Positions 14,407 through 55,171 of a DNA stretch of 62,805 nucleotides are shown piece after piece. The position numbers and the translations under genes are program-made. The notes beneath the pieces were generated by a model. It made no database searches and was not told the origin of the DNA. It worked only from the letters and a program-made list of their open reading frames with translations. Source of the DNA: Candidatus Gottesmanbacteria bacterium (GTDB lineage Bacteria > Patescibacteriota > Microgenomatia > UBA10105 > UBA927); contig JACREM010000041.1 of NCBI GenBank assembly GCA_016218215.1, positions 1 through 62,805 on the forward strand, read 5' to 3'. The stretch's first letter is position 1; every line of letters starts with the position of its first letter.

Positions 14407-14423
14407 ATTGCATTTGGTTTTTT

Positions 14424-15101
14424 ATGAAAGAATCAATGGTTAAGCGCGAAAAAAGAATAGAAACATTACTCCATGATATAAAGCATGCAAATTCAGGTGA
14501 TGAGTATGCTCTTCAATTTTCGGTAGACGCAAAAAAATATCGACTCATACCCATAACATACAAAGATCAAGAGTCACGAAATGCAGTAATACTACTTACA
14601 GCATGGAGAAAGAAAAATGATTGGTGGTTTCCGTCGCAGTTTAAAGTGACGTACGAGGGTACGAAGAGATGGCTTACTTCACAGCTTCTAGAAAAAAAAG
14701 GGAGAGTATTATTTTTTCTTGAAGATGAGAAGCGAAATAAAATTGGTCACTTGGGGCTTTATTCTTTTGATTTCAAGCATAACTCGTGTGAGATAGATAA
14801 TGTGATACGCGGAGAAGAAAGTGCTCCCGGGGTTATGACGGATGCACTCAATACTCTCATGCAGTGGACGTATGACGTGTTAAAAATTAAGACCATGTAT
14901 CTTCGGGTTTTTAGTGACAACGAGCGGGCGATAAAATTATACAGACGGTGTAACTTTGTAGATGATGATTTAATTCCACTAGTGAAGGAGGTTCGAGATG
15001 ACGGCACGTATTGGATTGAAGATTCAAAAATGAAAGCTAAGCCTGAGAGAAGTTTTCTCAAAATGAGGCATGTGCCAAAAAAGTTGAAAGACACAAGATG
15101 A
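14424..15101 (+). CDS. GNAT family N-acetyltransferase
   Basis: 225 aa. The acetyl-CoA-binding region reads RGEESAPGVMTDALNTLMQW..LRVFSDNERAIKLYRRCNF. Confidence 0.75.
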   Translation: MKESMVKREKRIETLLHDIKHANSGDEYALQFSVDAKKYRLIPITYKDQESRNAVILLTAWRKKNDWWFPSQFKVTYEGTKRWLTSQLLEKKGRVLFFLEDEKRNKIGHLGLYSFDFKHNSCEIDNVIRGEESAPGVMTDALNTLMQWTYDVLKIKTMYLRVFSDNERAIKLYRRCNFVDDDLIPLVKEVRDDGTYWIEDSKMKAKPERSFLKMRHVPKKLKDTR

Positions 15102-23507: not shown

Positions 23508-26500
23508 AGAAAATATTTTGTTTATAAGCAGTATTGTTTTGCTTATTTTCATTCCGTTGTATCCGAAGTTTCCTTTACTGGATATAAAAAATACATGGGT
23601 GTATGTGCGGATAGAAGATTTTCTGGTGCTGGCAGTACTTTTCATATGGGGTCTACTTGCCCTCAAACATCGTATTAGCCTCAAAACTCCGATCACGATT
23701 CCTATATTTCTCTTTTGGCTCTCCGGTGCCATAGCGACACTGCATGGGATATTACTTATATTTCCAACACTCCAGGTGGCCTATCCGAACGTAGCGTTTT
23801 TAAGCTTTCTCCGTCGTATGGAGTATATTTCCATGTTTTTTGTGGCATACGCTTCAGTCAAGGAAAAGAAGTATCTGGGTGTGTTGGTTCTCGCGATAGT
23901 TTTTACGCTTCTCTCAGTCTCTCTCTATGGCATCGGACAAATATATGTGGGTTTCCCGGCATTTCTGACCATGAACGAAGAGTATGCCAAAGGACTTGCT
24001 ATCCATCTGTCGAGGTTATCCCGGATATCTTCGACGTTTAGCGGGCATTATGATCTTGCTGCATATCTTGTACTCATACTGCCTATTATCGCGAGCATGA
24101 TTTTTGGTTTCCGGAATTTATTTGTACGGGTGTTTTTGGTCTTCAGTGCGGTACTCGGGTTTATCGCACTTTTTATGACCGTATCCCGGATATCGTTTTT
24201 TGCGCTATTTGTGTCGTTTGGCTTGGTACTTTTTATGCACAAGAAAAAATTCGTATTATATTCTATCCCGGTGGTGGTGGTGCTTGCTCTTTTATTTTTA
24301 AGTCTTTCTCCGAAGGTGTTTGAGCGGTTTAGCAATACGATAAAAGCGATAGATGTCGTAGTCGACGCGAAAACCGGGGATCCTATCGGACATACCAAAA
24401 CCGTACCAAGAAGCTACTTTGTCGATAAAACCGTTAAGCAACAATACACTCAATCAATAAAAAATATCTACGGGTATGCAAGCGCGTCTGCAATGCTCAT
24501 AGTACACGAAGCTGAATTACCCGAGAAGGTAACGTTACTTCTTGAACCCAGTTCACCGACCGGAGAAGATTTGCCCCAGGGTACGGGCTATATAAATCTG
24601 TCGCTTTCACCAATACTTCAAAAGCTCGATACGTTTTTGTATGAACCAAAGCCAAGAGTAGCGACTACGTCGGCAGAGGTATTTGTCATAAATGGAAATT
24701 TTCTTGTGAAGAAAGTATTTACGTATGATCTCTCGTTTACCACCCGGTTTCAGGGCGAATGGCCGAAGGCAATGGAAGCATTTTCTAAAAATATTCTTTT
24801 CGGGAGCGGGTATGGGTCGATAGGACTTGCGGTAGACAATAGCTATCTTCGGATGTTAGCCGAGGTTGGGCTTCTGGGTTTTTTCTCGTTTTTCTCAATT
24901 TTTATCATAGTCGGAGTCTACATAAAAAAGATTTTGCCTGATGTTGATTCCAGACTTCTTCGAAGTGTTGTCATCGGTTTTACCGCAGGGCTCGTTGGCC
25001 TTGCAATCAATGCGCTATTTATAGACGTATTTGAGGCGTCTAAGGTCGCATTTGTCACATGGATATTCCTTGGATTTATCTTGGGTTTACTAAGACTCTA
25101 TGAGCGAAAACCGGTACATATCTCTAAAGAGTTTTTACATGTATTGGTCTCGACTCCAGCGATAGTCGTATATATCGCACTTACCGCATTTCTTCTTTAC
25201 TCTCCTATGACACATAATTATTTTGTGGGAGATGATTTTACCTGGTTTCGGTGGGCTTCCGACTGTAGTGTAAAAACCGCATCAGGATCATGTCCGGTTG
25301 ATGCAAAGACGATTGTGCGGTATTTTACCGAGTCGAATGGATTTTTCTACAGACCGGGATCGAAGGTGTATTTTCTTCTCATGTATTCTCTTTTTTGGCT
25401 CAATCAATCTGCATATCATATAGTCTCTCTCATGCTGCATGGGGTAGTGGCCATACTTGTATTTTTTCTTTCTAAAAAATTATTGAAAAATATATATTTT
25501 GCCCTCTCAGCAGGTATATTATTTTTACTACTTAACGGAAATGCAGAGGCGGTGTACTGGGTCAGTGCGACCGGGTTTCTATTTAGTGCTGTCTTTTCGC
25601 TCTTGGGACTTTTAAGTTTTATATCGTTTGAAGAAAATAAAGAACGTAGGTTTGTCGTATTTTCAGTGATGTTTATATTGCTCTCTACGTTTTTTCACGA
25701 AGTCGGTATAGTGACTCCAATTCTCATACTGCTTTACCGGAGTATATATAGTCCGGGTGAATCTATGCGTAGACTTTGGACTGATAAAATATCAAAGTTG
25801 TTGTTTTTGCCGGTTCCGGTATATTTGTCTATGCGCTACATATCCCAGAGTCATTGGCTTTCTGGTGACTATAGCTATAATCTGTTGCGGCTGCCTCTAA
25901 ACGTCGCCGGAAATAGTTTTGGATATCTGATGCTCACTGTTTTTGGTCCTATCTCTGAGCCTTTGTATCAGATTATCCGGACAGGGTTAAAAGCGCATGT
26001 CATCATTGCCGCGATTATCATAGTATCGGCATCTGTCGTCGGTGTATGGTTTGTCCGGAAATACAGTCACATTTTAGAAAAACAGGACAGGCTCACCATA
26101 CATTTTGGCATACTCTTTTTTGTAGTTTCGCTCCTGCCGTTTTTAGGTCTTGGAAATATGTCATCCCGGTATAGTTATCTCTCGACTATCGGCGTGATTT
26201 TTATACTCATAATAATTGCTAAATATCTCTTTAAGTCTTTACTATATAACGGAAAAATGATTGCAGGCTTTGGTACGGCGGTAGCAATATCTGCATTTGT
26301 GCTTTTTCAGATCATCCAGCAGCAGCAGATAACGTCGGACTGGTATGAGGCGGGAAAAAGAACGCATGCATTTATCGTTTCCATGGGAGGATCGTATGAA
26401 AACGGATGGGCAAGCATGCCTATGGAGCTTCATTTTGTGAATGTTCCGATACGGCATGGCGGTGCATGGGTGTTTCCTGTAGGCATGCCTGATGCATTGT

Positions 26501-26658
26501 GGCTTTTGTATCGAAATCCAAAACTACGGATATTTGCCTGGCCGTCTTTATCACAGGCTTTTGACGCTGTGATGGCAGGCTCTGATACCCAAAAGGTATT
26601 TGAATTTGAGGAAAAAGGAAGTGTGGTTGAACGCATAAAACCGCAGACGATACAATGA
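23482..26658 (+). CDS. Fusion protein: O-antigen ligase/polymerase (Wzy_C-like) domain plus a second GT-C-like multi-TM module
   Basis: 1058 aa. The N-terminal half carries Wzy_C-like features (SRLSRISSTFSGHYDLAAY.., FMTVSRISFFAL, FGSGYGSIGLAVDNSYLRMLAEVGLLGF). The C-terminal half has another 10 or more TM helices opening with YFVGDDFTWFRW. Confidence 0.65.
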   Translation: MKKLWLWCKENILFISSIVLLIFIPLYPKFPLLDIKNTWVYVRIEDFLVLAVLFIWGLLALKHRISLKTPITIPIFLFWLSGAIATLHGILLIFPTLQVAYPNVAFLSFLRRMEYISMFFVAYASVKEKKYLGVLVLAIVFTLLSVSLYGIGQIYVGFPAFLTMNEEYAKGLAIHLSRLSRISSTFSGHYDLAAYLVLILPIIASMIFGFRNLFVRVFLVFSAVLGFIALFMTVSRISFFALFVSFGLVLFMHKKKFVLYSIPVVVVLALLFLSLSPKVFERFSNTIKAIDVVVDAKTGDPIGHTKTVPRSYFVDKTVKQQYTQSIKNIYGYASASAMLIVHEAELPEKVTLLLEPSSPTGEDLPQGTGYINLSLSPILQKLDTFLYEPKPRVATTSAEVFVINGNFLVKKVFTYDLSFTTRFQGEWPKAMEAFSKNILFGSGYGSIGLAVDNSYLRMLAEVGLLGFFSFFSIFIIVGVYIKKILPDVDSRLLRSVVIGFTAGLVGLAINALFIDVFEASKVAFVTWIFLGFILGLLRLYERKPVHISKEFLHVLVSTPAIVVYIALTAFLLYSPMTHNYFVGDDFTWFRWASDCSVKTASGSCPVDAKTIVRYFTESNGFFYRPGSKVYFLLMYSLFWLNQSAYHIVSLMLHGVVAILVFFLSKKLLKNIYFALSAGILFLLLNGNAEAVYWVSATGFLFSAVFSLLGLLSFISFEENKERRFVVFSVMFILLSTFFHEVGIVTPILILLYRSIYSPGESMRRLWTDKISKLLFLPVPVYLSMRYISQSHWLSGDYSYNLLRLPLNVAGNSFGYLMLTVFGPISEPLYQIIRTGLKAHVIIAAIIIVSASVVGVWFVRKYSHILEKQDRLTIHFGILFFVVSLLPFLGLGNMSSRYSYLSTIGVIFILIIIAKYLFKSLLYNGKMIAGFGTAVAISAFVLFQIIQQQQITSDWYEAGKRTHAFIVSMGGSYENGWASMPMELHFVNVPIRHGGAWVFPVGMPDALWLLYRNPKLRIFAWPSLSQAFDAVMAGSDTQKVFEFEEKGSVVERIKPQTIQ

Positions 26659-33524: not shown

Positions 33525-34163
33525 ATGGTATATATATTACTTAAGCGGGCAATTGATATCTGTGGTAGCCTTATTCTCTGGATTATTTTTTTCCCGGTTT
33601 GTTTGGTTACTGCTGTAGCCATAAAGCTCGATAGCCCAGGTCCAATTTTAGCAGATACTCCGGATAGGGTTGGGAAAGAAGGGAGACTGTTTAAGCTGTT
33701 TAAGTTTCGATCAATGATTGTAAATGCACACGAAACTCTTCGGACGAACCCAAAATTTTCAAAACTTTATAGTGAATACAAGAAAAATAGTTATAAATTA
33801 AAAGAGGATCCTCGCGTGACCCGCATAGGACGGTTTATTAGAAAACATTCCATTGATGAGATACCACAGTTGTTAAATGTGCTTCGTGGAGAGATGAGTC
33901 TGGTTGGCCCGCGTCCGTATTATCCTGATGAGCTTGTTGATCAACAAAGAAAGTATCCTCATACGCAGGAACTTGTGAAAGTCGTATTGTCTGCAAAACC
34001 GGGGATTACAGGTCATTGGCAGGTGTCTGGACGAAGCGAAGTAAATTTTGACAAGCGTATAAAAATGGACGCGGACTATGTAAAGAAGCGTTCGATTGTT
34101 TTAGATATTACCATTTTATTTAAAAGTCCGTGGGCAATGATTTCCGGTAAGGGCGCTGTTTGA
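33525..34163 (+). CDS. Polyprenyl-phosphate sugar-1-phosphate transferase (small monotopic PGT, WbaP/PglC-like)
   Basis: [37 protein letters not shown] and [21 protein letters not shown] are present. Confidence 0.9.
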
Positions 34164-36915: not shown

Positions 36916-38310
36916 ATGACAACACTTGATACAATCGTCAGTTTATGTAAGAGACGGGGGTTTGTATATCCCAATTCAGAAATTTATGGTGGGATAGCCG
37001 GGTTTTACGACATGGGCCCGATGGGACATCTTTTGCGTCAGAATATGAAAAAACTCTTTTGGGAGTTCATGCTGGTTGATCATGAAAATATTTTTCCGAT
37101 CGATGGGACAATTATTACACATCCAAAGGTGTGGGAGGCATCCGGGCATGTAGGGAGCTTTGCAGATGCAATGGTTGAATCTACTGGCGGACATGCAGGC
37201 AACAAAAGATATCGCGCTGACCATCTGATAGAAGAAATGTACTCCGAAGCTGAGCTAAGGTCTGCTGATTTAGCTGCAAAAAAAGAAGGAATGAGTAGCA
37301 TTGAGGCTTATTCAATATTATTAAAAGGGAAAAAAGCACCAGATGGAGGAATTTTGGGGGAAGTCAAAAAATTCAGCCTCATGGTTGAGACTTCGCTCGG
37401 TGTTGTGGAGGGCGATAAAAAAAGTGCATATCTCAAAGGAGAGGCATGCCAGACTATTTATCTTGATTATCAGAATGTGCTCGACAGCATGCATCCAAAG
37501 ATACCATTCGGGATTGCTCAGATAGGAAAAGCATTTCGCAATGAAGTGGCGAACCCTCAGTTTATGTTAAGACTCAAAGAGTTTGAGCAGTGGGATATGC
37601 AGTTTTTTGTCAATCCAAAAGAAATGGATACATGGTATGAATATTGGAAAGAGCAGAGAATGAATTGGTATAAATCCATATTTAACGATAAAGAGAACTT
37701 GAGATTTAGACAGCATAGAGATGATGAATTGGCTCATTATGCCAAAAAGGCTTTTGACATAGAGTATAAGACACCGTCAGGATGGAAAGAAGGAGAAGGA
37801 ATACATTGGAGGGGGGATTGGGACCTGTCGCGTCACGGGAAATACAGTGGTCATGATTTTACGTATACAGATGCAGAGACTGGAGAAAAGTTTATTCCCT
37901 GGATCGTGGAAACTTCGGGGGGAGTAGATCGCACATTTCTATTTTTATTGCTCGATGCATACAAAGAGGATGGAGATCGTGTTTTTCTAAAACTTCATCC
38001 CAAATTGTCACCATATACTGTGGCTGTATTTCCATTGGTTCGAAACAAGCCGGATATCACTGTAAAGGCGAAAGACGTGTATAAACATTTGAAGTTAGAT
38101 TTGAAAATGTCCACCGCGTGGGATGACCGAGGGAATATTGGGAAGAGATATTATGCCCAGGATGAGATAGGAACACCCTGGTGTATTACAATAGACTATA
38201 CAACGCTTGAAGATAATACGGTTACACTACGAGATCGCGATACGGCAACTCAGATTCGTTTGCCTATAGATAAAATTCGTGAATATGTATTTACACGTAT
38301 GCAGGTTTAG
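36916..38310 (+). CDS. glyS: Glycine--tRNA ligase (dimeric class II GlyRS)
   Basis: CKRRGFVYPNSEIYGGIAGFYDMGPMG, GKAFRNE, ETSGGVDR and the anticodon-binding C-terminus are present. Confidence 0.92.
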   Translation: MTTLDTIVSLCKRRGFVYPNSEIYGGIAGFYDMGPMGHLLRQNMKKLFWEFMLVDHENIFPIDGTIITHPKVWEASGHVGSFADAMVESTGGHAGNKRYRADHLIEEMYSEAELRSADLAAKKEGMSSIEAYSILLKGKKAPDGGILGEVKKFSLMVETSLGVVEGDKKSAYLKGEACQTIYLDYQNVLDSMHPKIPFGIAQIGKAFRNEVANPQFMLRLKEFEQWDMQFFVNPKEMDTWYEYWKEQRMNWYKSIFNDKENLRFRQHRDDELAHYAKKAFDIEYKTPSGWKEGEGIHWRGDWDLSRHGKYSGHDFTYTDAETGEKFIPWIVETSGGVDRTFLFLLLDAYKEDGDRVFLKLHPKLSPYTVAVFPLVRNKPDITVKAKDVYKHLKLDLKMSTAWDDRGNIGKRYYAQDEIGTPWCITIDYTTLEDNTVTLRDRDTATQIRLPIDKIREYVFTRMQV

Positions 38311-42271: not shown

Positions 42272-43444
42272 ATGATACGGATGATCAAAAATTGGTATCA
42301 TTTCATGCGGGCTGTAGCTTCGATACTGTATTTTCGGTTTCCAGACAGGAATCTCGTTGTCATTGGAGTTACTGGTACAGACGGGAAAACGACAACCACA
42401 ACCCTTATTTATCACATATTGCGATCCTTAGGGGTGAAAACCTCGATGATAACATCTGTTCATGCGGTCATTGCCGGAAAGGAGTATGACACGGGGTTTC
42501 ATGTGACATCTCCGGATTCGTACTACATTCAAAAATATCTTCGAGAGGCAATTGATCACGGTGATACGCATTTTGTCCTTGAGGTCACATCTCATGGATT
42601 GGCTCAGCACAGATTTTTCGGTGTTCGATTTTCTGTCGGCGTACTGACAAATATTACTCACGAACATCTCGATTGGCATAGGTCGTTTGATGAGTATATG
42701 AGAACAAAATTTACTCTTTTACGACGATCAGCCATAGCAGTATTAAATCGAGATGAAACAGATGTATATACAAAAGCAGTAGCAAGTATGGGAAACAAGA
42801 AAATAGTAACGTATGCCATACGAAGAGATGCAATGATGACAACGAATAACACGCCGTTTCAAACGTTACTTCCGGGAGAATTCAATCAATACAATAGCTT
42901 AGCTGCAATTTCAGCACTATATGCTCTGGGTTTTCCTATGAAAAAGATTGTCCGAGCTGTTTCAACATTTCAGGGAGTTGTAGGAAGAATGGAAGTACTG
43001 AAAGTTCGCCCGTTTCGTATCATCGTAGATTTTGCTCATACCCCAAATGCTATAGAGCAGGTAGGGAAAACCGTACGGGCGCAAACAAAAGGAAAACTTA
43101 TCCATGTATTTGGTTCAGCAGGCCTTCGGGACGCGTCTAAACGCCCTATGATGGGAAAAAATTCGTCCCAATTTGCTGATGTTATTGTTTTAACAGAAGA
43201 AGATTATCGTACAGAGAATGTACAAGATATCATGACTTCTATTCGAAAGGGGATTTCGATTGATACCCCAACATACCAGTATGAAAATAGGTACGATGCT
43301 ATCGAATTCGCGCTGTCTATCGCAAAGCCCGGGGACACAGTGCTTGTAACAGGGAAAGGACATGAGAAAAGTCTTTGCCGCGGAACAGTTGAGATTCCAT
43401 GGAGCGATCAGGAAACAATACAACAGATATTGAAAAAGATTTGA
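42272..43444 (+). CDS. murE: Mur ligase, MurE-like, lacking the N-terminal UDP-binding domain
   Basis: The P-loop GVTGTDGKTTTT is already at residues 33-44. DFAHTPNA and GSAGLRDASKRPMMG..VLTEEDYRTEN are present. The protein is only 390 aa. Confidence 0.75.
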   Translation: MIRMIKNWYHFMRAVASILYFRFPDRNLVVIGVTGTDGKTTTTTLIYHILRSLGVKTSMITSVHAVIAGKEYDTGFHVTSPDSYYIQKYLREAIDHGDTHFVLEVTSHGLAQHRFFGVRFSVGVLTNITHEHLDWHRSFDEYMRTKFTLLRRSAIAVLNRDETDVYTKAVASMGNKKIVTYAIRRDAMMTTNNTPFQTLLPGEFNQYNSLAAISALYALGFPMKKIVRAVSTFQGVVGRMEVLKVRPFRIIVDFAHTPNAIEQVGKTVRAQTKGKLIHVFGSAGLRDASKRPMMGKNSSQFADVIVLTEEDYRTENVQDIMTSIRKGISIDTPTYQYENRYDAIEFALSIAKPGDTVLVTGKGHEKSLCRGTVEIPWSDQETIQQILKKI

Positions 43445-43448
43445 AACA

Positions 43449-44213
43449 TTGGGGTCAATATTCATGAATGATATACAAAAAAAATACTATTATACTTCGC
43501 CGTTATTTGCACAATATAACGAGGTTTTTCATGGGACAACAACGAAGCAGTATGGTCCAATAAAGAGAGATGCATCCACAATAGAATATCTTTGCGGTGT
43601 TTTTGGTCGCAAAAAACAAGACTTTATTACCGGACAACAAACACATGGAAATACGGTATTGGAAGTGAATTCAACGCATAGAGGAGTTGTGGCGCCATCC
43701 ACTGACGGATTAGTATTGCATGTAAATGATAAGAGTCAGTCAAAAAAATTGTTTATAGGTGTATTTACAGCGGATTGTGTCCCTGTTTTTTTCTACGATC
43801 CAAAGAATTCTCTCGTTGGTATCTGTCATGCAGGATGGAAAGGGGTTATCGGAAAAATCGTGAAGAACATGGTAAAACAATGTATAAAATGCGGCAGCAA
43901 CCCGGGCAATCTTCGGGTTTGCTTGGGTCCTCACATACGTTCGTGCAGTTACTCTGTTGCCATAGAACGAGCAAGACTGTTTGAGGAGACGTATGGAAAA
44001 GATTCAGGTGTTGTCGCGGTGCATGACTCAAAGCATTTTATAAATCTTTCAGAAGCAATTTCCCTTGATCTAAAAGCAAGCGGCGTGAATCCTCGGCATA
44101 TAGATCATGACTGCTCACCGTGCACTTATTGCGATAGCGAAATGTTTTATTCGTATAGAAGACGAATCGGTGAAGAAATGCATGAGATGATAAGTTTTAT
44201 TGGTATTCATTAA
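43449..44213 (+). CDS. pgeF: YfiH/PgeF (DUF152) family protein, peptidoglycan editing factor / laccase-domain protein
   Basis: FTADCVPVFFYD, CHAGWKG and GPHIRSCSY are present. The start could be 43449 or 43464. Confidence 0.8.
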   Translation: MGSIFMNDIQKKYYYTSPLFAQYNEVFHGTTTKQYGPIKRDASTIEYLCGVFGRKKQDFITGQQTHGNTVLEVNSTHRGVVAPSTDGLVLHVNDKSQSKKLFIGVFTADCVPVFFYDPKNSLVGICHAGWKGVIGKIVKNMVKQCIKCGSNPGNLRVCLGPHIRSCSYSVAIERARLFEETYGKDSGVVAVHDSKHFINLSEAISLDLKASGVNPRHIDHDCSPCTYCDSEMFYSYRRRIGEEMHEMISFIGIH

Positions 44214-46637: not shown

Positions 46638-47969
46638 ATGCAAACGTTTGAAATTACTGGGGGTACGCCACTATTGGGGACGATAGAGGTTGGTGGTGCA
46701 AAGAATGTCGCATTGAAGCTTTTGGTTGCAAGCTTGCTTACTGATGACGAGCTTATTATCCACAATGTGCCCAAGCTACGCGATGTCCTTTTTATGCTTG
46801 ATGTGCTAAAAAGTCTTGGTGTTAAAGAGTCTTTTGTTGGAAATACCGTGAGAATTCAGGGAGGGGCAAATGTAGCCACCACAGTGCCCCTAGAGGTTGG
46901 GGCTCGCCTTCGGACATCTTCTATGGTACTCGGCCCTATGCTTGCCCGTTTTGGCGAAGCAAAGCTTCCAAACCCCGGGGGTTGTCGTATCGGCGCGAGG
47001 CCTATAGACCGGCATATTGAGGGCTTAAAGAAGATGGGTGCTACTATTTCTTATCACTCTGATGACGGTTATTTTTACGGTGTTGCAAAAAAACTTACTG
47101 GCGCAGACATTACGTTTGAAAAGAACACTCATACGGGCACAGAAACATTAATTCTGGCTGCAGTTCTTGCTTCAGGGAAAACTATTCTTCGTAACGCAGC
47201 GAGTGAAGTAGAGGTAGACGATCTCATAGGATTTTTGAATTCCATGGGCGCAAGAATACAAAGAACAGCAGAGAATGAGATTACTATCGATGGCGTCGAA
47301 TCCCTGCATGGATCGGAATATACAGTGATGCCAGATAGAAACGAAGAAGTTACGTTTGCAATTGCTGCAGTTGTGACAAAAGGAGATCTTACTATAAAAA
47401 ATTCTCAGAGGAATAATTTAGAATCATTTATTCAGAAATTTTCTCAGGTTGGTGGCGGTATCGAAGAAATAGATGATAAAACGACACGGTATTACTATAA
47501 AGAACCCCTAAAGGCAAGTGACATAATGACCCAGAGGTATCCGGGATTCATGACCGATTGGCAAGCACCCTGGGCTCTTCTCATGACCCAGTCAGAAGGC
47601 GTTTCAACACTCCATGAAACAGTGTTTGAAAGTAGATTTTCATACGTATCAGAATTAAAAAAGATGGGTGCAGTGATAGAATTTTATACCCCGAAGGTCG
47701 CAGATCCTGAAAAGTTTTATAATTTTAACTGGGATGATAAAGTAGAAGGATATTTTCAGGGCATACGTATAACAGGTCCTACAGCTCTTCATAATGCAGT
47801 ACTTTCCATTGACGATTTGCGCGCGGGTGCCACGCTTGTGTTGGCGGCACTTTCTGCAAACGGTCAGAGCTATGTGCATGGTGTGGAGCAGGTTGATCGC
47901 GGATATGAAAAAATTGAAAAAAGATTGTCTCGTGTCGGTGCCCACATTAAACGCATCGAGGAGGAGTAA
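46638..47969 (+). CDS. murA: UDP-N-acetylglucosamine 1-carboxyvinyltransferase
   Basis: GGAKNVALKLLVASLL and the active-site loop PNPGGCRIGARPIDRHI are present. Confidence 0.92.
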   Translation: MQTFEITGGTPLLGTIEVGGAKNVALKLLVASLLTDDELIIHNVPKLRDVLFMLDVLKSLGVKESFVGNTVRIQGGANVATTVPLEVGARLRTSSMVLGPMLARFGEAKLPNPGGCRIGARPIDRHIEGLKKMGATISYHSDDGYFYGVAKKLTGADITFEKNTHTGTETLILAAVLASGKTILRNAASEVEVDDLIGFLNSMGARIQRTAENEITIDGVESLHGSEYTVMPDRNEEVTFAIAAVVTKGDLTIKNSQRNNLESFIQKFSQVGGGIEEIDDKTTRYYYKEPLKASDIMTQRYPGFMTDWQAPWALLMTQSEGVSTLHETVFESRFSYVSELKKMGAVIEFYTPKVADPEKFYNFNWDDKVEGYFQGIRITGPTALHNAVLSIDDLRAGATLVLAALSANGQSYVHGVEQVDRGYEKIEKRLSRVGAHIKRIEEE

Positions 47970-47973: not shown

Positions 47974-49287
47974 ATGAAAAATAATGTTACATGTGTTGTT
48001 CTTGCTGGTGGAGAGGGAAAACGGTTTTGGCCGCTTTTAACAAATAAAGTGCTATTTCCCTTTTTTGGGAAACCTTTGTTTGATTATTCCGTAAGAGATG
48101 TTTTGCCAAAAGAAGTAGACAATGTTGTCATCGTAGCACGTCCCTCAACAAAAGTTGTATATGAGTCTCTGACGTTGCCCGTGAAACATTCAGTAGTCGT
48201 ACAAGAACAGCCTCTCGGCATGGCAGATGCGCTTCTCCAGTCAAAAGAGTTTCTCCCAAAACACACACCAATTTTGATAGCCATAGCAGACGACGTCGCT
48301 GATCCTTTGCTTTTCTCTGAACTGTTAAAGACAGCTGCGAAAAAAAATGCATTTGGCGTAATTCCCGGGTGGAAAGTCGAAACATATCATGATTTAGGAT
48401 ATCTCGTTTTGGACGGAGAGCGTGTCACATCGATAGTGGAAAAACCCAGTGAAGGGAATGAACCAAGCTCGTATGTGTATATTTCCGGACAGTATATATC
48501 TGACTGCACCATATTATTTGATCAAATTGAAAAAATTTCTAGTGAAAAGGATGATGTTTTTGAGAAGGCAGTTTCTCGCCTCATGGAGAAAAATTTGTTT
48601 GTCATGCATCCATATTCAGGTAGCGATGCGACGCTTAAGCTTCCTTGGCATGTGCTTGATGTCATGGACCAGTTATTTTTACGCGTAAAATCTCATAGAG
48701 GGAAAAACGTTGTTATTAAATCAAACGTAGTCATTGAGGGAGAAGTTTACATAGACGATGACGTGAAGATTTATGAAAATACGAAAATTGTAGGTCCGGC
48801 ATACATTGGTCGAGGGACGATTGTCGGAAACAACAATATGATCCGTCACAGTCACATTGGAGCTGGATGCGTGACCGGATTTAATACGGATATAACCCGA
48901 AGTTATGTAGGAGATTCCTGCTGGTTTCACATGAATTACATAGGGGACAGTGTCCTTGAAAGTGAGATAACGCTCGGTGGAGGTGCGATGCTTGCTAATT
49001 TACGTCTTGATGACGGAGAGATTCGATCGGAAGTAAAAGGTGAAATGAAAAAGACACAAAAAAATAAACTTGGAAGCATCATTGGAAGAGGAGTTCGGAT
49101 CGGCGCAAATACAACGATTATGCCGGGGATAAAAATCGGCAAGGGCACGCTTATTTCTTCTGGACTTGTTATAGATCGTGATATCCCTGACGGGTCGTTT
49201 GTAAAAGGAATCACCAACTATACAATCGTATCGAATAAAGACGCCGTTCATCCTCTCTCCCGGGATGAATTTAAAAAGAAACTGTAA
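47974..49287 (+). CDS. GlmU-like bifunctional sugar-1-phosphate nucleotidyltransferase / LbH acyltransferase
   Basis: Start trimmed to MKNNVTCVVLAGGEGKRFWPL. The C-terminus holds hexapeptide repeats (IGRGTIVGNNNMIRHSHIGAG.., IGANTTIMPGIKIGKGTLISSG). Confidence 0.7.
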   Translation: MKNNVTCVVLAGGEGKRFWPLLTNKVLFPFFGKPLFDYSVRDVLPKEVDNVVIVARPSTKVVYESLTLPVKHSVVVQEQPLGMADALLQSKEFLPKHTPILIAIADDVADPLLFSELLKTAAKKNAFGVIPGWKVETYHDLGYLVLDGERVTSIVEKPSEGNEPSSYVYISGQYISDCTILFDQIEKISSEKDDVFEKAVSRLMEKNLFVMHPYSGSDATLKLPWHVLDVMDQLFLRVKSHRGKNVVIKSNVVIEGEVYIDDDVKIYENTKIVGPAYIGRGTIVGNNNMIRHSHIGAGCVTGFNTDITRSYVGDSCWFHMNYIGDSVLESEITLGGGAMLANLRLDDGEIRSEVKGEMKKTQKNKLGSIIGRGVRIGANTTIMPGIKIGKGTLISSGLVIDRDIPDGSFVKGITNYTIVSNKDAVHPLSRDEFKKKL

Positions 49288-49292
49288 TTATT

Positions 49293-50009
49293 ATGAAGAG
49301 AGATATTATTATTCTCCATGGGTGGGGGCTTGATGGTTCCCGTTTCACTCCGTTAAAAACAGAACTTGAAAAACGTGGAGCGAGAGTATGGGCACCGGAT
49401 TTTCCTGGCTTTGGTTCGGCAAAAAATCCACAAGCACCCTATCATCTTTTTGAGTATGCGATGTTTTTACGAGATTTTATGAAAAAATATAAGATACAAA
49501 ATCCCGGTTTTATCGGCCATTCCTTTGGAGGAAGAGTAGCACTCAAGTATGATTTTCTCTTTCCAAAAAGCGTGCGTTGGATAGTGCTCACTGGTACACC
49601 AGGGTTTCGATCGTCTTCATCGCTTAAGGTGAGTTTGGGTATTGCAATTGTAAAATTGGGTAAATATTTTGTTTCATTACCTCTCATGAAAAACTTTAAG
49701 AACTCAATAACTCAGAGCTATTATTCTTTTATAGGTGTTCAAGGGTATGGTCGTGCTCAAGGGACAATGAAAGACACATTTAAATATATTGTTTCTGAGC
49801 CACTTGAATCATATATGAAATCGCTTTCAGTCCCGTGTTTACTTCTTTGGGGTGAACTTGACACCCTCGTTCCAACCCAAATAGCGGTGAGAATGCATAA
49901 CGCTATACCAAATTCTACTGTATCTATTATTCGTGGATTTGGCCACTCAGTGCCATATACAAGTCCGTATGATTTTGTGAGGCTCATGAAGCAACATAAT
50001 TTTATATGA
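49293..50009 (+). CDS. Alpha/beta-fold hydrolase
   Basis: HGWG, the nucleophile elbow GHSFGG, Asp in GELDTLVP and His in GFGHSV. Confidence 0.75.
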   Translation: MKRDIIILHGWGLDGSRFTPLKTELEKRGARVWAPDFPGFGSAKNPQAPYHLFEYAMFLRDFMKKYKIQNPGFIGHSFGGRVALKYDFLFPKSVRWIVLTGTPGFRSSSSLKVSLGIAIVKLGKYFVSLPLMKNFKNSITQSYYSFIGVQGYGRAQGTMKDTFKYIVSEPLESYMKSLSVPCLLLWGELDTLVPTQIAVRMHNAIPNSTVSIIRGFGHSVPYTSPYDFVRLMKQHNFI

Positions 50010-51481
50010 ATATTGCTATTACTATCGTCGCTTTCTTCTGGGCGCTTCGAATTTTAAGAAATATTCTTTCTTATGCACAACTTTGGTATGTAAAAGAGTA
50101 TCGGCTGGATCGGATGCTTATTCATCTTCGTACTGATCAAGGGAAGCGGATATTTAATCCAAGTTTCAGGAGACCTCCAATTTCACCTAAGTCAGTTGTA
50201 CTTGTTGGTGTGACTTTTATTGCTTTTAGTGTTTTTGTGTATTCATTTTCTGCGCCGATTTTTTTGTCTTTATTAATAACCGATTTATTGCTTTTTCCAT
50301 GTATGGGTTTTTTTGTGTTCATCCTCAATATGCCAACGTTTATGTATCATTCACTCCTTATTTCTCTTGCGGTATCAAAATTACGATCACACGGAAAAAT
50401 GGTCTGTATCGGTATCACCGGAAGTTATGGAAAAACTTCGACAAAAGAGTATCTCGCTACAATTTTGGAACAGTCCGATACCGTACTCAAAACCGCGGCA
50501 AGTAAAAATTCTCCGATTGCAATAGCAGAGCTCGTTTTACACAATTTGAAACCATCTCATAGAATTTTTATAGTAGAAATGGGAGCGTACAAAGAAGGAG
50601 AAATTGCACAAATGTGCCGTATGGTGCTTCCTGAAATAGGTATTGTTACTGCGATAAATGAGCAGCATCAGGATTTGTTTGGAAATATAGAGACAACCAT
50701 GAAGGCAAAATATGAACTCATTTCATCACTCTCTGGTAAAAAAATTGCCATCATGAATGCGGATAACCCGTATGTATTTGCGATGGCAGAGCAGGCAAAA
50801 AAAGATGGAGTAGATGTGTGGTGTTATACGAAGGATGTGAAGAAAAAATTTTCCTTCGGGCATGTGTTTTATATTCGCAATATTCATGAGAGTGTTGATA
50901 AATTACGATTTACGATTCTATACAAGAAAAAATCATACGATGTGTCAGCACCCGTGATTGGTGCATTTCAGGCACAAAATATTACCGCTGCAATTGCTGG
51001 AAGTATCGCAGGTGGAATGGAAATAATTGATGCTGTAGAGGCGTGCAACAGTCTTCAGTCTGTGCCAAAGATGATGCAGAAGCTGGACGGTATACATGGG
51101 TCTATATATATAAATGATACATTTAACAATAATCCCGATGCGGCATGTGCCGCTCTTGAATATTTACGGATAGGAGAAGAACGTAAAATTCTCGTCTTTC
51201 AGCCGATGATTGAGCTAGGATCGTTTTCGCAAGTCGCACATGAGCGGGTCGGAAAACTTGCAGGAGAAGTGTGTGATGAAATACTTCTGACAAATACAAA
51301 TTTTCGTACACCGTTTTTACAAGGCGTCAAATTGAGCGGAGGCAATGCACGCGTTTTTGTATTAGATTCAAATAAAGCTCAAAAATTCTTGAGAAATTAT
51401 CTGCACGCGGGAGACATGGTGTTATTTAAAGGCAAAGAAGCCCAATCAGTGATTACGCTACTTGAAGAAAAATCTTTATGA
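50006..51481 (+). CDS. murF: MurF-like Mur ligase with an N-terminal multi-TM domain
   Basis: Residues 1-125 contain about four hydrophobic helices. These are followed by GITGSYGKTSTKEY, VEMGAYKEGEI and INDTFNNNPDAA. Confidence 0.8.
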   Translation: MNIAITIVAFFWALRILRNILSYAQLWYVKEYRLDRMLIHLRTDQGKRIFNPSFRRPPISPKSVVLVGVTFIAFSVFVYSFSAPIFLSLLITDLLLFPCMGFFVFILNMPTFMYHSLLISLAVSKLRSHGKMVCIGITGSYGKTSTKEYLATILEQSDTVLKTAASKNSPIAIAELVLHNLKPSHRIFIVEMGAYKEGEIAQMCRMVLPEIGIVTAINEQHQDLFGNIETTMKAKYELISSLSGKKIAIMNADNPYVFAMAEQAKKDGVDVWCYTKDVKKKFSFGHVFYIRNIHESVDKLRFTILYKKKSYDVSAPVIGAFQAQNITAAIAGSIAGGMEIIDAVEACNSLQSVPKMMQKLDGIHGSIYINDTFNNNPDAACAALEYLRIGEERKILVFQPMIELGSFSQVAHERVGKLAGEVCDEILLTNTNFRTPFLQGVKLSGGNARVFVLDSNKAQKFLRNYLHAGDMVLFKGKEAQSVITLLEEKSL

Positions 51482-52704
51482 TATTTTCACCAATCACGTG
51501 TTCTCTGTCGCCAAATACTGAGATATCAGACGTATGGACAGCGTGTAAGACGCTTTTTATGCCGTGGAAATGGATGACAGGTGGCGAGATTACGAAAGTT
51601 GAGTCTTGGTTTCATACAAGATACCCATTATATGTTAGCCTTTCCACTAACAGCGGAAGAAGTGCTCTGTACCTACTTTTACAATCATTTGGAATAGGAG
51701 AGGGAGATGAGGTTATCGTTCAATCTTTTACCTGCGTCGCTTTGCCAAATGCAGTGCTTTGGACCGGAGCGACTCCTGTATATGCGGATATTGATACACG
51801 GTTTAATATAGATCCTTTGTCGATTGAAAAACATATTCATCCGCAAACAAAGGCGATCATCATTCAGAATACGTTTGGCATACCAGCACAGTATGAAAAA
51901 ATTGCAGAGATTGCAAAGAAACAGAACATTCTCTGTATAGAAGATTGTGCTCATAGCCTGGGTGGTCGATATGAATCTGGTGCTTTAATAGGCGGGGTTG
52001 GGGATGCAAGTTTTTTTAGTTTTGGGAGAGATAAGATTATTTCAAGTGTTTTTGGCGGGGTCGGAAGCATACACAAAAAACATACAAAAGCGGTGGCAAG
52101 ATTTATATCGTTACATAGTAAACTACAATTTCCAAACCCAATCTGGGTATTTCAGCAAATTTTTCATCCAATTGCGTTTTCGTTCATATTGCCTTTGTAT
52201 TCATTGGGAATTGGAAAAGCATTGCTTTTTCTCCTTCAAAAATTGAAATTGCTTTCGTTTCCTGTATATAAAGAGGAAAAGGAGGGAAAAAGACCGACTG
52301 ATTTTCCTAAAAAATATCCAAACGCGCTGGCTCAAATGCTTATTCCTCAACTTAAAAAATTAGAGAGATATACTGCCCAAAGAACTGTAATCTCTGGGTA
52401 TTATAAAAAATCATTAGGCTCCTCATTTTCTCCGATGGATCTCGTGACTGGTTCAGTATTTTTACGGTATCCGGTTCTTTCTCAAAAAAGGGATGAGATT
52501 ATTTCAAAAGCAAAATCACAAGGGATACTCCTTGGGACGTGGTACAGTAATATTCTTGATCCCAAGGGTACGAATTTCCACAATTTGTATTATACAAAGG
52601 GTTCATGTCCAAAATCAGAGAGGTGTGCATCCCTTATCCTTAATCTTCCGACGCGAATATCACTTGCTGATGCAAAGAAAGTAGTTGCATCTTTACAACA
52701 ATGA
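51478..52704 (+). CDS. DegT/DnrJ/EryC1/StrS family aminotransferase-fold protein with a hydrophobic insert
   Basis: NSGRSALYLLL, VIVQSFTCVALPNAV and FFSFGRDKIISSVFGG are present. The insert reads IWVFQQIFHPIAFSFILPLYSLGIGKALLFLLQKL. ATGA overlaps on both sides. Confidence 0.75.
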   Translation: MIFSPITCSLSPNTEISDVWTACKTLFMPWKWMTGGEITKVESWFHTRYPLYVSLSTNSGRSALYLLLQSFGIGEGDEVIVQSFTCVALPNAVLWTGATPVYADIDTRFNIDPLSIEKHIHPQTKAIIIQNTFGIPAQYEKIAEIAKKQNILCIEDCAHSLGGRYESGALIGGVGDASFFSFGRDKIISSVFGGVGSIHKKHTKAVARFISLHSKLQFPNPIWVFQQIFHPIAFSFILPLYSLGIGKALLFLLQKLKLLSFPVYKEEKEGKRPTDFPKKYPNALAQMLIPQLKKLERYTAQRTVISGYYKKSLGSSFSPMDLVTGSVFLRYPVLSQKRDEIISKAKSQGILLGTWYSNILDPKGTNFHNLYYTKGSCPKSERCASLILNLPTRISLADAKKVVASLQQ

Positions 52705-53714
52705 AAAAAATACATATTCAATCAATAATAGATAAATCAACGTGGGATGAATTTATGATGCGATTTGGAAAAGCATCGCTTTTCCAAAGTTTTGAATGGG
52801 GCGAAGTAGAGGCACGTATGGGTATTCCATTATCTCGTCATGGATTATTCGAGGGAAATACTCTTGTAGGGGTATTTCAGATCGCAGTTATGAAATCCCG
52901 CCGAGGCATATTCCTCCATGTCCGGCATGGGCCTGTTTTATCCAGTCAATCTGAGGATTACTGGGACACATTTATATCGTATATGAAGGATATGGGAAAA
53001 AGAGAGAATGCTTACTTTTTCCGGGTAAACCCAATGATTTTTGATTCGGAGGAACAGAGGAAAATGCTCAGAGATCTAGGGTTTCGTCCGTCACCCATAC
53101 ATGCCATGGACGCAGAGTATTGTTTGGTCCTTGATATCACGAAAAGCGAGGAAGAATTGCTCTCCTCTATGAGAAAAACCACACGATATGAAATCCGAAA
53201 AGCAGACTCTCTTGGCGTCAAAGTATCTCACTATGTAGATAAAAGACACTTAGATCATTTTTTTGATCTGTACAAAAAAACTGCGCTTCGCCATGAGTTT
53301 GTACCTCATAGCGGTATACGCGAAGAATTTGATGTTTTTGTGAGAGACGGGAAGGCGGTGTATATAGAAGCGCAGTACGGAAGTGAAATTCTTGCCGGAG
53401 CGATTATCCTTTTTTATATGGGACAGGCGATTTATCACCATGGAGCATCAATTCCCTCTAAAATTCCTGCTGCCTACGCCATACAATGGGCCGCGATAAG
53501 AGAAGCAAAAAAAAGAGAATGTACTCGGTATAATTTTTGGGGTATAGCACCGGAAGATAAAAAAAATCATCCATGGAGAGGAATTACTGGGTTTAAATAC
53601 GGATTTGGCGGAGTTCCTGAATCGTACATGCACGCTCATGATTTCCCGTTGGATATTCGGTACTCAATTTCATATCTTATTGAAACAGTAAGGCGTATAA
53701 AAAAAGGATATTAA
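52701..53714 (+). CDS. FemAB/FemX family aminoacyl-tRNA-dependent peptidoglycan peptidyltransferase
   Basis: ASLFQSFEWGEV, MRKTTRYEIRKADSLG, YHHGAS, RYNFWGI and GITGFKYGFGG are present. Confidence 0.85.
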   Translation: MKKIHIQSIIDKSTWDEFMMRFGKASLFQSFEWGEVEARMGIPLSRHGLFEGNTLVGVFQIAVMKSRRGIFLHVRHGPVLSSQSEDYWDTFISYMKDMGKRENAYFFRVNPMIFDSEEQRKMLRDLGFRPSPIHAMDAEYCLVLDITKSEEELLSSMRKTTRYEIRKADSLGVKVSHYVDKRHLDHFFDLYKKTALRHEFVPHSGIREEFDVFVRDGKAVYIEAQYGSEILAGAIILFYMGQAIYHHGASIPSKIPAAYAIQWAAIREAKKRECTRYNFWGIAPEDKKNHPWRGITGFKYGFGGVPESYMHAHDFPLDIRYSISYLIETVRRIKKGY

Positions 53715-53732
53715 GAGTTAGTGGTATAATCA

Positions 53733-54113
53733 ATGGTACGCATGAAAGAACTATTACGTACGCATCATATTTCGTTTAAAAATGCGTTTGCCGGTGTCTT
53801 GTGGTCATTTAGGACTCAGCCAAATTTTCGGATTCATGCACTTTTATCTGCCTTTGTGCTTTTTGCGGCAAGTTTTTTCCAAATTGAAAAAATAGAGTAC
53901 GTAGTATTACTCTTTGCAATCGTCCTTGGGTTTACGAGCGAGATGCTCAATACTTCAGTTGAATCCATGACAGATCTCATATCGACTGAGTGGAAAAAAG
54001 AAGCAAAAATAGCAAAAGACGTTGCTGCGGGCATGATGCTTTTTACGGCGTTTGGAACCGCTGCCATAGCAGTCATTATTTTTTATCCATATATTGCGAA
54101 ACTTTTTATCTAG
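53733..54113 (+). CDS. dgkA: Diacylglycerol/undecaprenol kinase (DgkA family)
   Basis: SFKNAFAGV..FRIH, SEMLNTSVESMTDL and AKDVAAGMML are present. Three TM helices. Confidence 0.85.
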   Translation: MVRMKELLRTHHISFKNAFAGVLWSFRTQPNFRIHALLSAFVLFAASFFQIEKIEYVVLLFAIVLGFTSEMLNTSVESMTDLISTEWKKEAKIAKDVAAGMMLFTAFGTAAIAVIIFYPYIAKLFI

Positions 54114-54118: not shown

Positions 54119-55171
54119 ATGACGGAACTTCTTGGGATATTATTATTTTCTTGGCTTATTCATAGCATCCTCTATGTCCCATTTATCCGAACCTTATATT
54201 CTCTCAAGCTTCAGAGATTAGAGCAAAAGACACGCGATGCGTTTGACAAGCGTACGCCGATTTTTGACAAACTTCATCAACACAAAGCTGGTACCCCTGT
54301 AGGCGGAGGGTTACTTATTATCCTTGTGACAACTGTTCTCGTCCCATTCATTCTCCTTCTTATGAAGTATTTTTGGTTTCCGATCACTTCGGTATTTCCT
54401 CTTTTTTCGGAGATAAAAGTAGTGCTTTTTGCTTTTCTCTCGTTTGGATTATTAGGCCTCGTAGATGATATGAAAAAAACGTTCGCCTGGAACGGGGCAT
54501 CAGGGATCTTTGGACTTCGACTCCGGCATAAACTGATTTTAGAGATCATTCTTGCTGTCGTTCTCTCATTTTGGATGGTATATGAGTTAAAAATTGATAT
54601 CTTTTATCTTCCGTTTTTTGGTGTATTTCGGATGGGGTGGTTTTATATCCCGTTTGCTGCATTTGTAATTATAGCGTTTGCCAATGCGTTTAACATTACA
54701 GATGGTTTGGATGGGTTATCATCGGGAGTGCTTACGGTTGCATTGGTTGCATTCTGGTTTATCTCAGCTACCATTCTCGATACTCCGCTCTCTATATTCT
54801 TAGCAATTTGGATAGGTGGCCTTGTTTCTTTTTTGTATTTTAATGTGGCCCCGGCTCGTATATTTTTAGGTGACGTGGGGGCACTATCGTTCGGAGCGAC
54901 CTTTGCAGTGGTGGGCCTTATGCTTGGGAAAGCCCCTGCTCTTGTTGTCATCGGCGGAATTTTTGTCGTTGAAGTTTTATCATCTCTTCTTCAGCTGTTG
55001 TCTAAAAAATATCTGGGAAGAAAACTATTTGTGGTTGCACCATTTCATCTCTGGCTTCAGTATAAAGGATGGCCGGAAACAAAAATTGTCATGCGATTTT
55101 GGATTATCGGAATTATTCTGGCAATTTTTGGACTATGGTTAGCGCTTCTAACCAAGCAGACAACTTTGTAA
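54119..55171 (+). CDS. mraY: Phospho-N-acetylmuramoyl-pentapeptide transferase
   Basis: KAGTPVGGG, GLVDD, AFNITDGLDGLSSG and IFLGDVGALSFGA are present. Start trimmed to MTELLGILL. Confidence 0.92.
   Translation: MTELLGILLFSWLIHSILYVPFIRTLYSLKLQRLEQKTRDAFDKRTPIFDKLHQHKAGTPVGGGLLIILVTTVLVPFILLLMKYFWFPITSVFPLFSEIKVVLFAFLSFGLLGLVDDMKKTFAWNGASGIFGLRLRHKLILEIILAVVLSFWMVYELKIDIFYLPFFGVFRMGWFYIPFAAFVIIAFANAFNITDGLDGLSSGVLTVALVAFWFISATILDTPLSIFLAIWIGGLVSFLYFNVAPARIFLGDVGALSFGATFAVVGLMLGKAPALVVIGGIFVVEVLSSLLQLLSKKYLGRKLFVVAPFHLWLQYKGWPETKIVMRFWIIGIILAIFGLWLALLTKQTTL

Follow-up and report, generated by a model that had tools for sequence, protein, structure and literature searches.

A conserved trio of a hydrolase, a divergent DegT-fold enzyme and FemX in Patescibacteria, and its possible part in peptidoglycan precursor synthesis

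Introduction

Among the described systems closest to the genes discussed here are the FemX/MurM enzymes of Firmicutes, which branch the stem peptide of cell wall precursors. FemX of Weissella viridescens (FemX_Wv) acts on UDP-N-acetylmuramoyl (UDP-MurNAc)-pentapeptide and FemX of Staphylococcus aureus on lipid II, and we know of no partner of these enzymes that is a hydrolase or depends on pyridoxal phosphate (PLP). In the dehydrophos enzyme DhpH, the PLP chemistry of an N-terminal domain and a tRNA-dependent acylation take place in sequence on one small molecule, and MurT is a Mur-ligase-family enzyme that has no UDP-binding N-terminal domain and acts on a membrane-bound precursor. Here we describe a gene module in the division and cell wall (dcw) cluster of Candidatus Gottesmanbacteria, a member of the Candidate Phyla Radiation (CPR), or Patescibacteria. 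The module lies on a contig of a metagenome-assembled genome, JACREM010000041.1; its whole length of 62,805 nucleotides was analysed and is called the window below.

An original prediction, made from the sequence, read six genes between murA and mraY as a non-canonical insertion into the dcw cluster with an undescribed role in precursor modification. Our analysis narrows this down. The unusual core is a trio of a cytoplasmic hydrolase, a divergent DegT-fold PLP enzyme and FemX, which is conserved across the CPR. It is often joined or fused to a membrane-anchored MurF and, as judged by residue conservation, seems to be catalytically intact. We lean, without great conviction, towards a reading in which it acts late, tethered to the membrane, and gives the stem peptide a modified branch in a tRNA-dependent way; our confidence in any particular PLP reaction, such as epimerization or transamination, is much lower. 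A description of the module was not found in the searchable literature, where papers only record murA-G, femX and mraY in Patescibacteria.

Results

Gene order in the window and its relatives

The dcw cluster of the window runs mraW, ftsI, murE, pgeF, murC, murB, murA, glmU, abH (the alpha/beta hydrolase gene), murF, degT-like, femX, dgkA, mraY, murI, murD, ftsW, murG, ftsQ and ftsA. The six genes of the module are forward-strand open reading frames (ORFs) whose domains, by Pfam and NCBIfam profiles, are those first described (Table 1), and the murA and mraY flanks are likewise in place.

Relatives were gathered around the DegT-like gene. A profile search of metagenomes with A1, an alignment of DegT-like homologues, gave 80 loci at 42-55% identity; a search of genome contigs with a single DegT-like protein as query gave one close locus only, and a second search, with a distant DegT-like member, led to proteins named as Uhrbacteria, Peregrinibacteria and 'Patescibacteria group'. 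The ORFs of the 80 loci were labelled by phmmer with the window proteins as queries; loci of relatives carry L numbers below.

In Microgenomates the order abH, membrane-anchored MurF, DegT-like and FemX is conserved. Of 54 evaluable loci, 47 have MurF as the gene immediately before the DegT-like one, and FemX lies downstream of the latter in nearly all: adjacent in 31 of 59, past a small gene of the metallo-beta-lactamase (MBL) fold in 23 more (54 of 59 together), and past some other inserted gene in 3. One clade of five loci has abH directly upstream of the DegT-like gene, murF having been lost from the position (L002, L003, L026, L062 and L079). An arrangement that is met again in about 90 independent loci is far from anything that chance would produce.

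Some of these loci carry further genes. The MBL-fold gene between DegT and FemX is a glyoxalase-II-like hydrolase (about 25 loci; L002 9173-9745). Accessory insertions include CvpA with a CAP-domain gene (9 loci; L006 11113-12183), GlmS (7 loci; L025 5793-7643) and a PD-(D/E)XK nuclease inside the module of 2 loci (L017 2165-3016), and a class-IV aminotransferase of the D-amino-acid or branched-chain type lies upstream on the opposite strand in 3 loci (L063 6800-7720, reverse strand). PgeF, the peptidoglycan editing factor (Cu-oxidase_4), is encoded at 43449-44213 between murE and murC, and keeps this position in most of the Microgenomates-type loci that span the region; it is absent from L061, L063, L069, L072 and L076.

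The three junctions of the core with murF overlap by ATGA, at 50006 (abH/murF), 51478 (murF/degT) and 52701 (degT/femX), and these overlaps had been thought to imply stoichiometric co-translation. We rejected them as a sign of special coupling: the forward-strand ORFs of the window have 14 four-base overlaps, 11 of which are outside the module, and in relatives the overlap is kept at only 22 of 41 abH/murF, 22 of 70 murF/degT and 4 of 43 degT/femX junctions.

The trio outside the dcw cluster, and its fusions

Across the wider CPR the order of a hydrolase, DegT and FemX persists in Uhrbacteria, Peregrinibacteria and other Patescibacteria, in places outside the dcw cluster that vary from locus to locus, with mreBCD-PBP2, ClpB or DNA polymerase III adjoining. 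A link that was described as hard-wired into the division cluster thus holds for Microgenomates-type genomes, but elsewhere the trio stands apart from it. The pair of DegT and FemX is usually preceded by a cytoplasmic transglutaminase-fold protein (L085, L086, L087, L089, L091, L092 and L093), or instead by abH and membrane-anchored MurF (L084, L090 and L065). The Parcubacteria-type locus L088 has, at 10215-14670 and in this order, DegT, FemAB, alanine racemase (Alr), MurF, abH and a gene resembling that of alanine aminotransferase; Alr comes after FemAB in L092 as well. The L088 set may be a compact operon for a D-Ala or D-Ser branch. Its MurF-like ligase has 433 amino acids, no transmembrane (TM) segment and a weak Mur_ligase_M match, and its Alr matches the Alr family and the catalytic domain of the VanT serine racemase about equally well.

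The gene for seryl-tRNA synthetase (SerRS) lies directly upstream in 8 of 11 non-dcw contexts, with a gap of 1-40 nt in five, and that for lysyl-tRNA synthetase (LysRS) lies ahead of SerRS in three. In the window, the gene for glycyl-tRNA synthetase (GlyRS; 36916-38310; NF003211, 540 bits) is just upstream of mraW and the dcw cluster. The GlyRS and SerRS neighbours may hint at the donor used by FemX, or may reflect only conserved gene order.

The closest associations are fusions, which make up 8 of the 150 best 50%-identity cluster representatives of the DegT-like family: four DegT-FemAB, three MurF-DegT and one Transglut_core-DegT. They fall in different 50% clusters, and the linkers of the DegT-FemAB fusions differ in length and sequence. 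One MurF-DegT fusion forms a 90% cluster of 4 members found on at least nine contigs, and another is on five contigs. The DegT-FemAB fusion of L093 was confirmed in the DNA as a seamless ORF of 756 amino acids; it lies in the context SerRS, transglutaminase-fold gene, DegT, FemX and FtsQ, and relatives have two genes in its place. On this Rosetta-stone evidence the PLP enzyme probably works together with MurF and FemX. The linkage that the original prediction proposed to check is therefore conserved, as a gene order in Microgenomates and as a repeatedly fused DegT-like/FemX pair across the CPR, and its non-conservation is refuted.

The divergent DegT-fold enzyme

The centre of the trio is recognizably, but only partly, a member of the DegT family. 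It matches PF01041 with 177.8 bits, the best stretch being only profile positions 19-202 of 360, whereas a canonical DegT paralogue at 13211-14341 of the window matches positions 3-359 with 383 bits. BLASTP against this paralogue aligns residues 3-215 only and the C-terminal half is unalignable. The AlphaFold2 (AF2) model of the DegT-like protein has a pLDDT of 94; its closest structure is GDP-perosamine synthase (26% identity, TMq 0.75), and Foldseek gives a probability of 1.00 against GDP-perosamine synthase, WbpE and ArnB.

Residues expected of a PLP enzyme are strongly conserved among 255 members: the Schiff-base lysine K186 (in SFxxxK) and D156, the PLP-N1 aspartate, in 100%, and the phosphate-binding serine S181 in 99%. 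In the same members R61, Q82, C86, Q130, R302, Y309, R330 and W355 are conserved in the subfamily only. An insertion of about 60 residues contains W223, Q227, H230, P231, Y241, G246, E267 and P273, all invariant in A1, and is modelled with helices at 221-240 and 245-255; it has no alignable counterpart in the canonical paralogue. We considered the insertion as a membrane hairpin or anchor and rejected this, as it is hydrophobic in the window protein and amphipathic in Parcubacteria-type members.

A profile of the subfamily scores its members at 450-650 bits, those from other CPR phyla at 450-513, against 105-133 bits for the two canonical DegTs of the window. All of the 150 best 50%-identity cluster representatives match along their whole length with more than 395 bits, and they share 32-50% identity with the window protein. 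By these profile scores the DegT-like protein belongs to a subfamily distinct from the surface-glycan aminotransferases, and a grouping with the latter, which was named at the outset as a way for the prediction to fail, is not what we see.

No keto-sugar-forming enzyme, whether a 4,6-dehydratase of the short-chain dehydrogenase/reductase (SDR) type or a sugar oxidoreductase, was found in about 100 contexts of the DegT-like gene (the 80 metagenomic loci, L001-L003 and L084-L093), whereas the canonical DegT paralogues of the same window do adjoin SDR dehydratases and serve as an internal control for a real sugar pathway. These paralogues (13211-14341 and 16842-18143) belong to a surface-glycan cluster at 10373-36181, which also has four SDR dehydratase/epimerases, a split transketolase pair (15098-16845), a GNAT protein, a hexapeptide acetyltransferase, many glycosyltransferases, an initiating transferase of the Bac_transf family (33525-34163) and a DUF4012 protein.

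Two other ideas about the enzyme were set aside. As a main idea, a substitute for alanine racemase was rejected, since Alr is encoded in the same operon in L088 (TIGR00492, 274 bits) and an Ala_racemase gene, found by its Pfam match and scoring 338 bits to the L088 Alr, is present in L092. Isoelectric point and net charge were rejected as a hint at tRNA binding, as the canonical DegT paralogues are equally basic.

FemX and the hydrolases

FemX matches PF02388 with 123 bits, and among solved structures it is closest to S. aureus FemX (6snr, E 1.9e-11) and Weissella FemX (E 7e-7). With 337 amino acids it is of the size of FemX_Wv (336) and lacks the coiled-coil insertion of FemA/B. A pair near its C-terminus, F298-K299, is invariant in 59 orthologues. 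The catalytic Phe-Lys motif of FemX_Wv is F304-K305 (PMC12945691), and we liken the two pairs by motif, the phmmer alignment spanning query residues 15-288 only.

The hydrolase encoded by abH has a GHSFGG nucleophile elbow, and across 43 orthologues its Ser77-Asp190-His218 triad and HGWG motif do not vary. Neither a signal peptide nor a TM segment was found in it, and its PDB relatives are generic esterases only, which give no functional lead. At the same position other CPR lineages have a Transglut_core protein in its stead; in four such sequences, compared by eye, the motifs VDCGGF, MHAW and DPS are consistent with a Cys-His-Asp triad and no TM segment was seen.

A MurF with a membrane anchor

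The identity of the ligase is supported from several sides. Among NCBIfam models the murF model TIGR01143 matches best, with 215 bits, under the cut-off of 288.6 and over model positions 67-407 only; the best PDB sequence matches are all MurF, and so are the ten best Foldseek PDB matches of the model (rmsd 2.6 Å over 383 columns). The P-loop, G139-K143, is invariant in orthologues, and NCBI annotates the identical protein as MurF of Candidatus Gottesmanbacteria.

What sets the protein apart is its N-terminus. The canonical domain of about 80-100 amino acids that contacts the UDP-MurNAc part is not present, and profile and structure matches begin at residue 125-134. Ahead of the ligase core the AF2 model has helices at 2-29, 34-41, 61-80 and 85-128 with a pLDDT of about 80-93. 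Nearly all complete MurF orthologues, including those of the Parcubacteria-type loci L084 and L090, have two to five hydrophobic segments before the P-loop, and residues K30, E31, Y32, R33, D35 and R36 of a KEYRxDR loop are invariant in 35 MurF sequences. The membrane anchoring that had been predicted is upheld by these segments and helices. From its sequence and model we take the protein to be a genuine D-Ala-D-Ala-adding ligase, in a CPR form whose N-terminal domain seems to have been exchanged for a membrane anchor of about three helices, and murF occupies its own classical position in the dcw cluster.

A similar shortening is seen in MurE of the window (42272-43444), which matches TIGR01085 with 373 bits and yet has only about 31 residues before its P-loop, the UDP-binding N-terminal domain being missing. 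It carries EDYR at the site of the DNPR motif of E. coli MurE. The short MurE recurs in 11 Gottesmanbacteria-like loci, and about 108 residues are kept in L072 and L076.

GlmU and DgkA as supply genes

The first and last genes of the module call for no special explanation. DgkA-type kinases feed undecaprenyl phosphate to MraY, as established in Gram-positives, and the DgkA of the window, which matches PF01219 with 98 bits over residues 17-117, is probably an undecaprenol kinase of this kind, a supply gene outside the unusual core. In 33 relatives its gene separates femX from mraY, and in 12 there is no dgkA at this place.

The GlmU-like protein matches the archaeal-type bifunctional GlmU model TIGR03992 over its full length, at 225 bits (under the cut-off of 292), and joins a nucleotidyltransferase to a left-handed beta-helix acetyltransferase (PF00483, PF00132 and PF25084). 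Its gene follows murA in at least 25 relatives, and in 7 relatives glmS is inserted after it, which fits a plain supply of UDP-GlcNAc. GlmU is outside the unusual core as well.

The view of the six genes as one non-canonical insertion must accordingly be given up, GlmU and DgkA being supply genes and murF standing in its classical position. An undescribed, precursor-related function is plausible for the DegT-like protein and the hydrolase, but the six-gene framing, which also took in the ordinary GlmU, DgkA and MurF, does not hold.

Table 1. Coordinates of the module and its flanking genes in the window
Feature	Position	Strand	Basis
murA, upstream boundary	46638-47969	+	443-aa ORF; EPSP_synthase in the L002 orthologue
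GlmU-like nucleotidyltransferase/acetyltransferase	47974-49287	+	NTP_transferase and Hexapep/LbH; TIGR03992
abH, cytoplasmic alpha/beta-fold serine hydrolase, first core member	49293-50009	+	Abhydrolase_1, 91 bits
MurF-type ligase, predicted to add D-Ala-D-Ala	50006-51481	+	Mur_ligase_M and Mur_ligase_C; TIGR01143
MurF N-terminal membrane region, aa 1-128	50006-50389	+	about 3 predicted TM helices and KEYRxDR loop
DegT-fold PLP enzyme, divergent, centre of core	51478-52704	+	DegT_DnrJ_EryC1, 178 bits
DegT-like helical insertion, about aa 215-278, W..QQ..HP motif	52120-52311	+	alignment A1 and model
FemX-type aminoacyl-tRNA-dependent transferase (FemABX family)	52701-53714	+	FemAB, 123 bits
DgkA-family lipid kinase	53733-54113	+	DAGK_prokar, 98 bits
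mraY, downstream boundary	54119-55171	+	Glycos_transf_4, 107 bits

Other features of the window

Elsewhere in the window, an AbiEii-type nucleotidyltransferase toxin is encoded at 9670-10389, preceded by an ORF of 198 amino acids that is a candidate antitoxin (pair 9071-10389). Four large ORFs (562, 1145, 676 and 1058 amino acids) in 1363-8867 and 23482-26658 match no Pfam family at E <= 1e-4 or 1e-5. The sizeable genes of positions 1-62805 are nearly all on the forward strand; GC skew is positive in every 2-kb bin and the cumulative skew is monotonic, which resembles the disparity in strand composition that a complete Microgenomates genome is reported to show (PMC7143001).

Discussion

A possible late step in precursor synthesis

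We infer that the trio acts on the product of MurF, and we likewise infer an order of steps, a donor and a type of PLP reaction, as follows. MurF, tethered at the membrane beside MraY, would complete UDP-MurNAc-pentapeptide. FemX would then move an aminoacyl group from aminoacyl-tRNA onto the side-chain amine of residue 3 of the stem peptide; the donor may be Ser-tRNA, as hinted by the co-operonic SerRS of Parcubacteria-type loci, and GlyRS is encoded near the cluster in the window. The DegT-like enzyme could hold the same precursor by the nucleotide-sugar-binding scaffold of its family, a scaffold that would suit the product of MurF because this is a nucleotide-sugar. Its PLP chemistry would be directed at a free amino group of the branched precursor, because the only free amines of the product of MurF are those of the residue-3 side chain and of any residue added by FemX; the likeliest point of attack would be the alpha-amino group of the residue that FemX has just added, by epimerization or transamination. 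The hydrolase may edit or trim the product, which would then pass to MraY, the likely acceptor of whatever the module makes.

A more specific version can be put forward, which we think possible though doubtful: across the CPR, peptidoglycan precursors would gain their side branch when FemX adds an L-aminoacyl residue from tRNA and the DegT-derived PLP enzyme, physically coupled or fused to FemX and to membrane-anchored MurF, turns it into the D-form or modifies it otherwise, either on the precursor or while on the tRNA. A dedicated hydrolase would proofread. Such a two-enzyme chemistry is not known elsewhere. A bolder corollary is that the membrane-anchored MurF, having lost its UDP-binding domain, and the trio might work on lipid-linked rather than UDP-linked intermediates.

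Several points weigh against a late step of this kind. For CPR organisms we found neither biochemical work nor muropeptide data, and no report on wall chemistry. In FemX_Wv, residues K36 and R211 are reported from mutagenesis to bind UDP-MurNAc-pentapeptide; phmmer places E37 and S204 of the window protein opposite them, in an alignment that at about 20% identity is too weak to decide the matter. The role of the hydrolase as an editor or trimmer is a guess. To our knowledge, the characterized DegT enzymes all act on keto- or amino-sugars or inososes and not on peptides, and we know of no precedent in the family for an epimerase or for a function on a peptide amine. The coupling to MurF is frequent and not obligatory, given the murF-less clade of Microgenomates and many Parcubacteria-type loci. 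Finally, no linkage to SerRS was found in the Microgenomates loci; SerRS is a housekeeping gene, and as Parcubacteria hold gene order unusually well (PMC4508563), its adjacency elsewhere may be gene-order inertia.

Other explanations

The alternative that survives best is that the DegT-like enzyme is a conventional nucleotide-sugar aminotransferase and makes a UDP-amino-sugar, the amine of which is aminoacylated by FemX, for the glycan strand or a wall polymer. The family prior speaks for it, the closest structures being GDP-perosamine synthase, WbpE, ArnB and QdtB, and the gene lies downstream of glmU in Microgenomates. There is also a precedent for FemX-like acylation of an amino-sugar amine, in Orf11, which converts streptothrisamine to glycylthricin (PMC12945691). 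We nevertheless consider this route unlikely: the dehydratase or oxidoreductase that should feed it is not among the neighbours, in contrast to those of the canonical DegTs, the C-terminal domain has been remodelled, there is a conserved insertion, the repeated fusion or adjacency to MurF is left unexplained, and glmU is not near in Parcubacteria-type loci.

The PLP enzyme might instead act on the donor, converting for example Ser-tRNA to a non-canonical or D-aminoacyl donor for FemX, with the hydrolase deacylating the wrong species. SelA, SepSecS and SepCysS are fold-type-I PLP enzymes that act on aminoacyl-tRNA, the pairing of DegT and FemX is obligate and sometimes fused, and the SerRS and LysRS genes upstream of non-dcw loci would find a natural place. 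MurF-DegT fusions, on the other hand, point to a nucleotide precursor and not to a tRNA, the link to SerRS does not extend to Microgenomates, the basic isoelectric point does not discriminate, and we know of no member of the DegT family that binds tRNA, all of which makes remodelling of the aminoacyl-tRNA, to us, a distinctly unlikely explanation.

We rate as improbable that the trio supplies the terminal dipeptide in place of a D-Ala-D-Ala ligase (Ddl), with FemX forming a dipeptide in a tRNA-dependent way and the PLP enzyme epimerizing its N-terminal residue before it is handed to the adjacent or fused MurF. A chemical precedent is alpha-amino-epsilon-caprolactam racemase, a fold-type-I PLP enzyme that racemizes amino-acid amides. 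No Ddl-like ORF was found in 1.05 Mb by phmmer with E. coli DdlB as query, a search of the window and the neighbourhoods in 92 loci only, in which the other precursor genes are present (glmS, glmU, murA-G and murI, with alr in L088 and L092). Alr and MurF stand beside DegT-FemAB in L088, Alr follows FemAB in L092, and the MurF-DegT fusions could be read in the same sense. A table of Parcubacteria core genes, which lists murF and does not list ddl, alr, COG0399 or COG2348, tips the question neither way. Yet the trio is often far from murF, the proposed chemistry is without precedent, and homologues of Ddl/Van-type ligases are reported to be abundant across CPR superphyla (PMC8651080).

That there is no special pathway at all, FemX making an ordinary cross-bridge next to an unrelated DegT-like gene and hydrolase held there by compact CPR gene order, is strongly disfavoured and in our estimate very improbable, since the conserved positions of CPR core genes (PMC4508563) and the ubiquity of ATGA overlaps in the window are set against three kinds of fusion, eight in all and spread over different 50% clusters, with at least two seen in several assemblies, a pair that stays together in unrelated surroundings, and strongly constrained catalytic residues.

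Significance

The CPR, or Patescibacteria, make up a large share of bacterial diversity, and the trio has been kept in them despite extreme genome reduction: homologues number in the thousands, catalytic residues are conserved and fusions have arisen repeatedly. From this retention, catalytic conservation and fusion we argue that the trio probably carries out an important step of envelope synthesis. What we would regard as new is FemX-type tailoring of precursors that involves a hydrolase and, as obligate partner, a PLP enzyme, within a membrane-tethered setting specific to the CPR. If the PLP enzyme does modify the branch, or the aminoacyl-tRNA donor, this would be a new type of reaction for the DegT family; it would also offer a new route to cross-bridges with modified or D-amino acids, and a lineage-specific target or marker. 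Furthermore, the membrane-anchored MurF and the MurE of Gottesmanbacteria, both without their N-terminal domain, raise the question of where the last 'cytoplasmic' steps of wall synthesis occur.

Comparison with known systems

The branching enzymes of Firmicutes are the nearest parallel to the CPR FemX, which shares with them the double-GNAT fold of the FemABX family, the size of FemX and a setting among wall genes, and which has a Phe-Lys pair that resembles their catalytic motif. It differs in being tied or fused to a DegT-fold PLP enzyme with a hydrolase before it, and in a weak alignment the residues reported to bind the precursor in FemX_Wv are not visibly conserved in it.

The DegT-FemAB fusions of the CPR are built like DhpH of the dehydrophos pathway, with the PLP domain first and a FemX-like, Leu-tRNA-dependent domain second in the latter (DhpH-C; PMC12945691). 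DhpH, however, belongs to secondary metabolism, acts on a phosphonate amino acid and has no link to a Mur ligase, and the likeness that we draw is one of PLP dependence and domain order. The sugar aminotransferases of the DegT family (GDP-perosamine synthase Per, ArnB, WbpE and PseC) have the same fold and PLP-binding residues; at 26-33% identity the relation is recognizable by sequence only in the N-terminal large domain, and the insertion of about 60 amino acids and the subfamily-specific residues set the CPR protein apart. Its partners are MurF and FemX rather than glycosyltransferases, and it has no partner dehydratase.

Two further systems resemble the membrane side of the module. MurT, of the MurT/GatD complex that amidates lipid II, is among the structural matches of the CPR MurF model, but the CPR protein is closest to true MurF in sequence and fold, has its own TM helices and no GatD-like glutaminase. 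VanT, in VanC-type clusters, also unites PLP chemistry with membrane anchoring, in a system that provides MurF with the terminal dipeptide. VanT, though, is a fold-type-III racemase with its own TM domain, whereas in the CPR module it is MurF that carries the anchor, beside a DegT-like PLP enzyme of fold type I.

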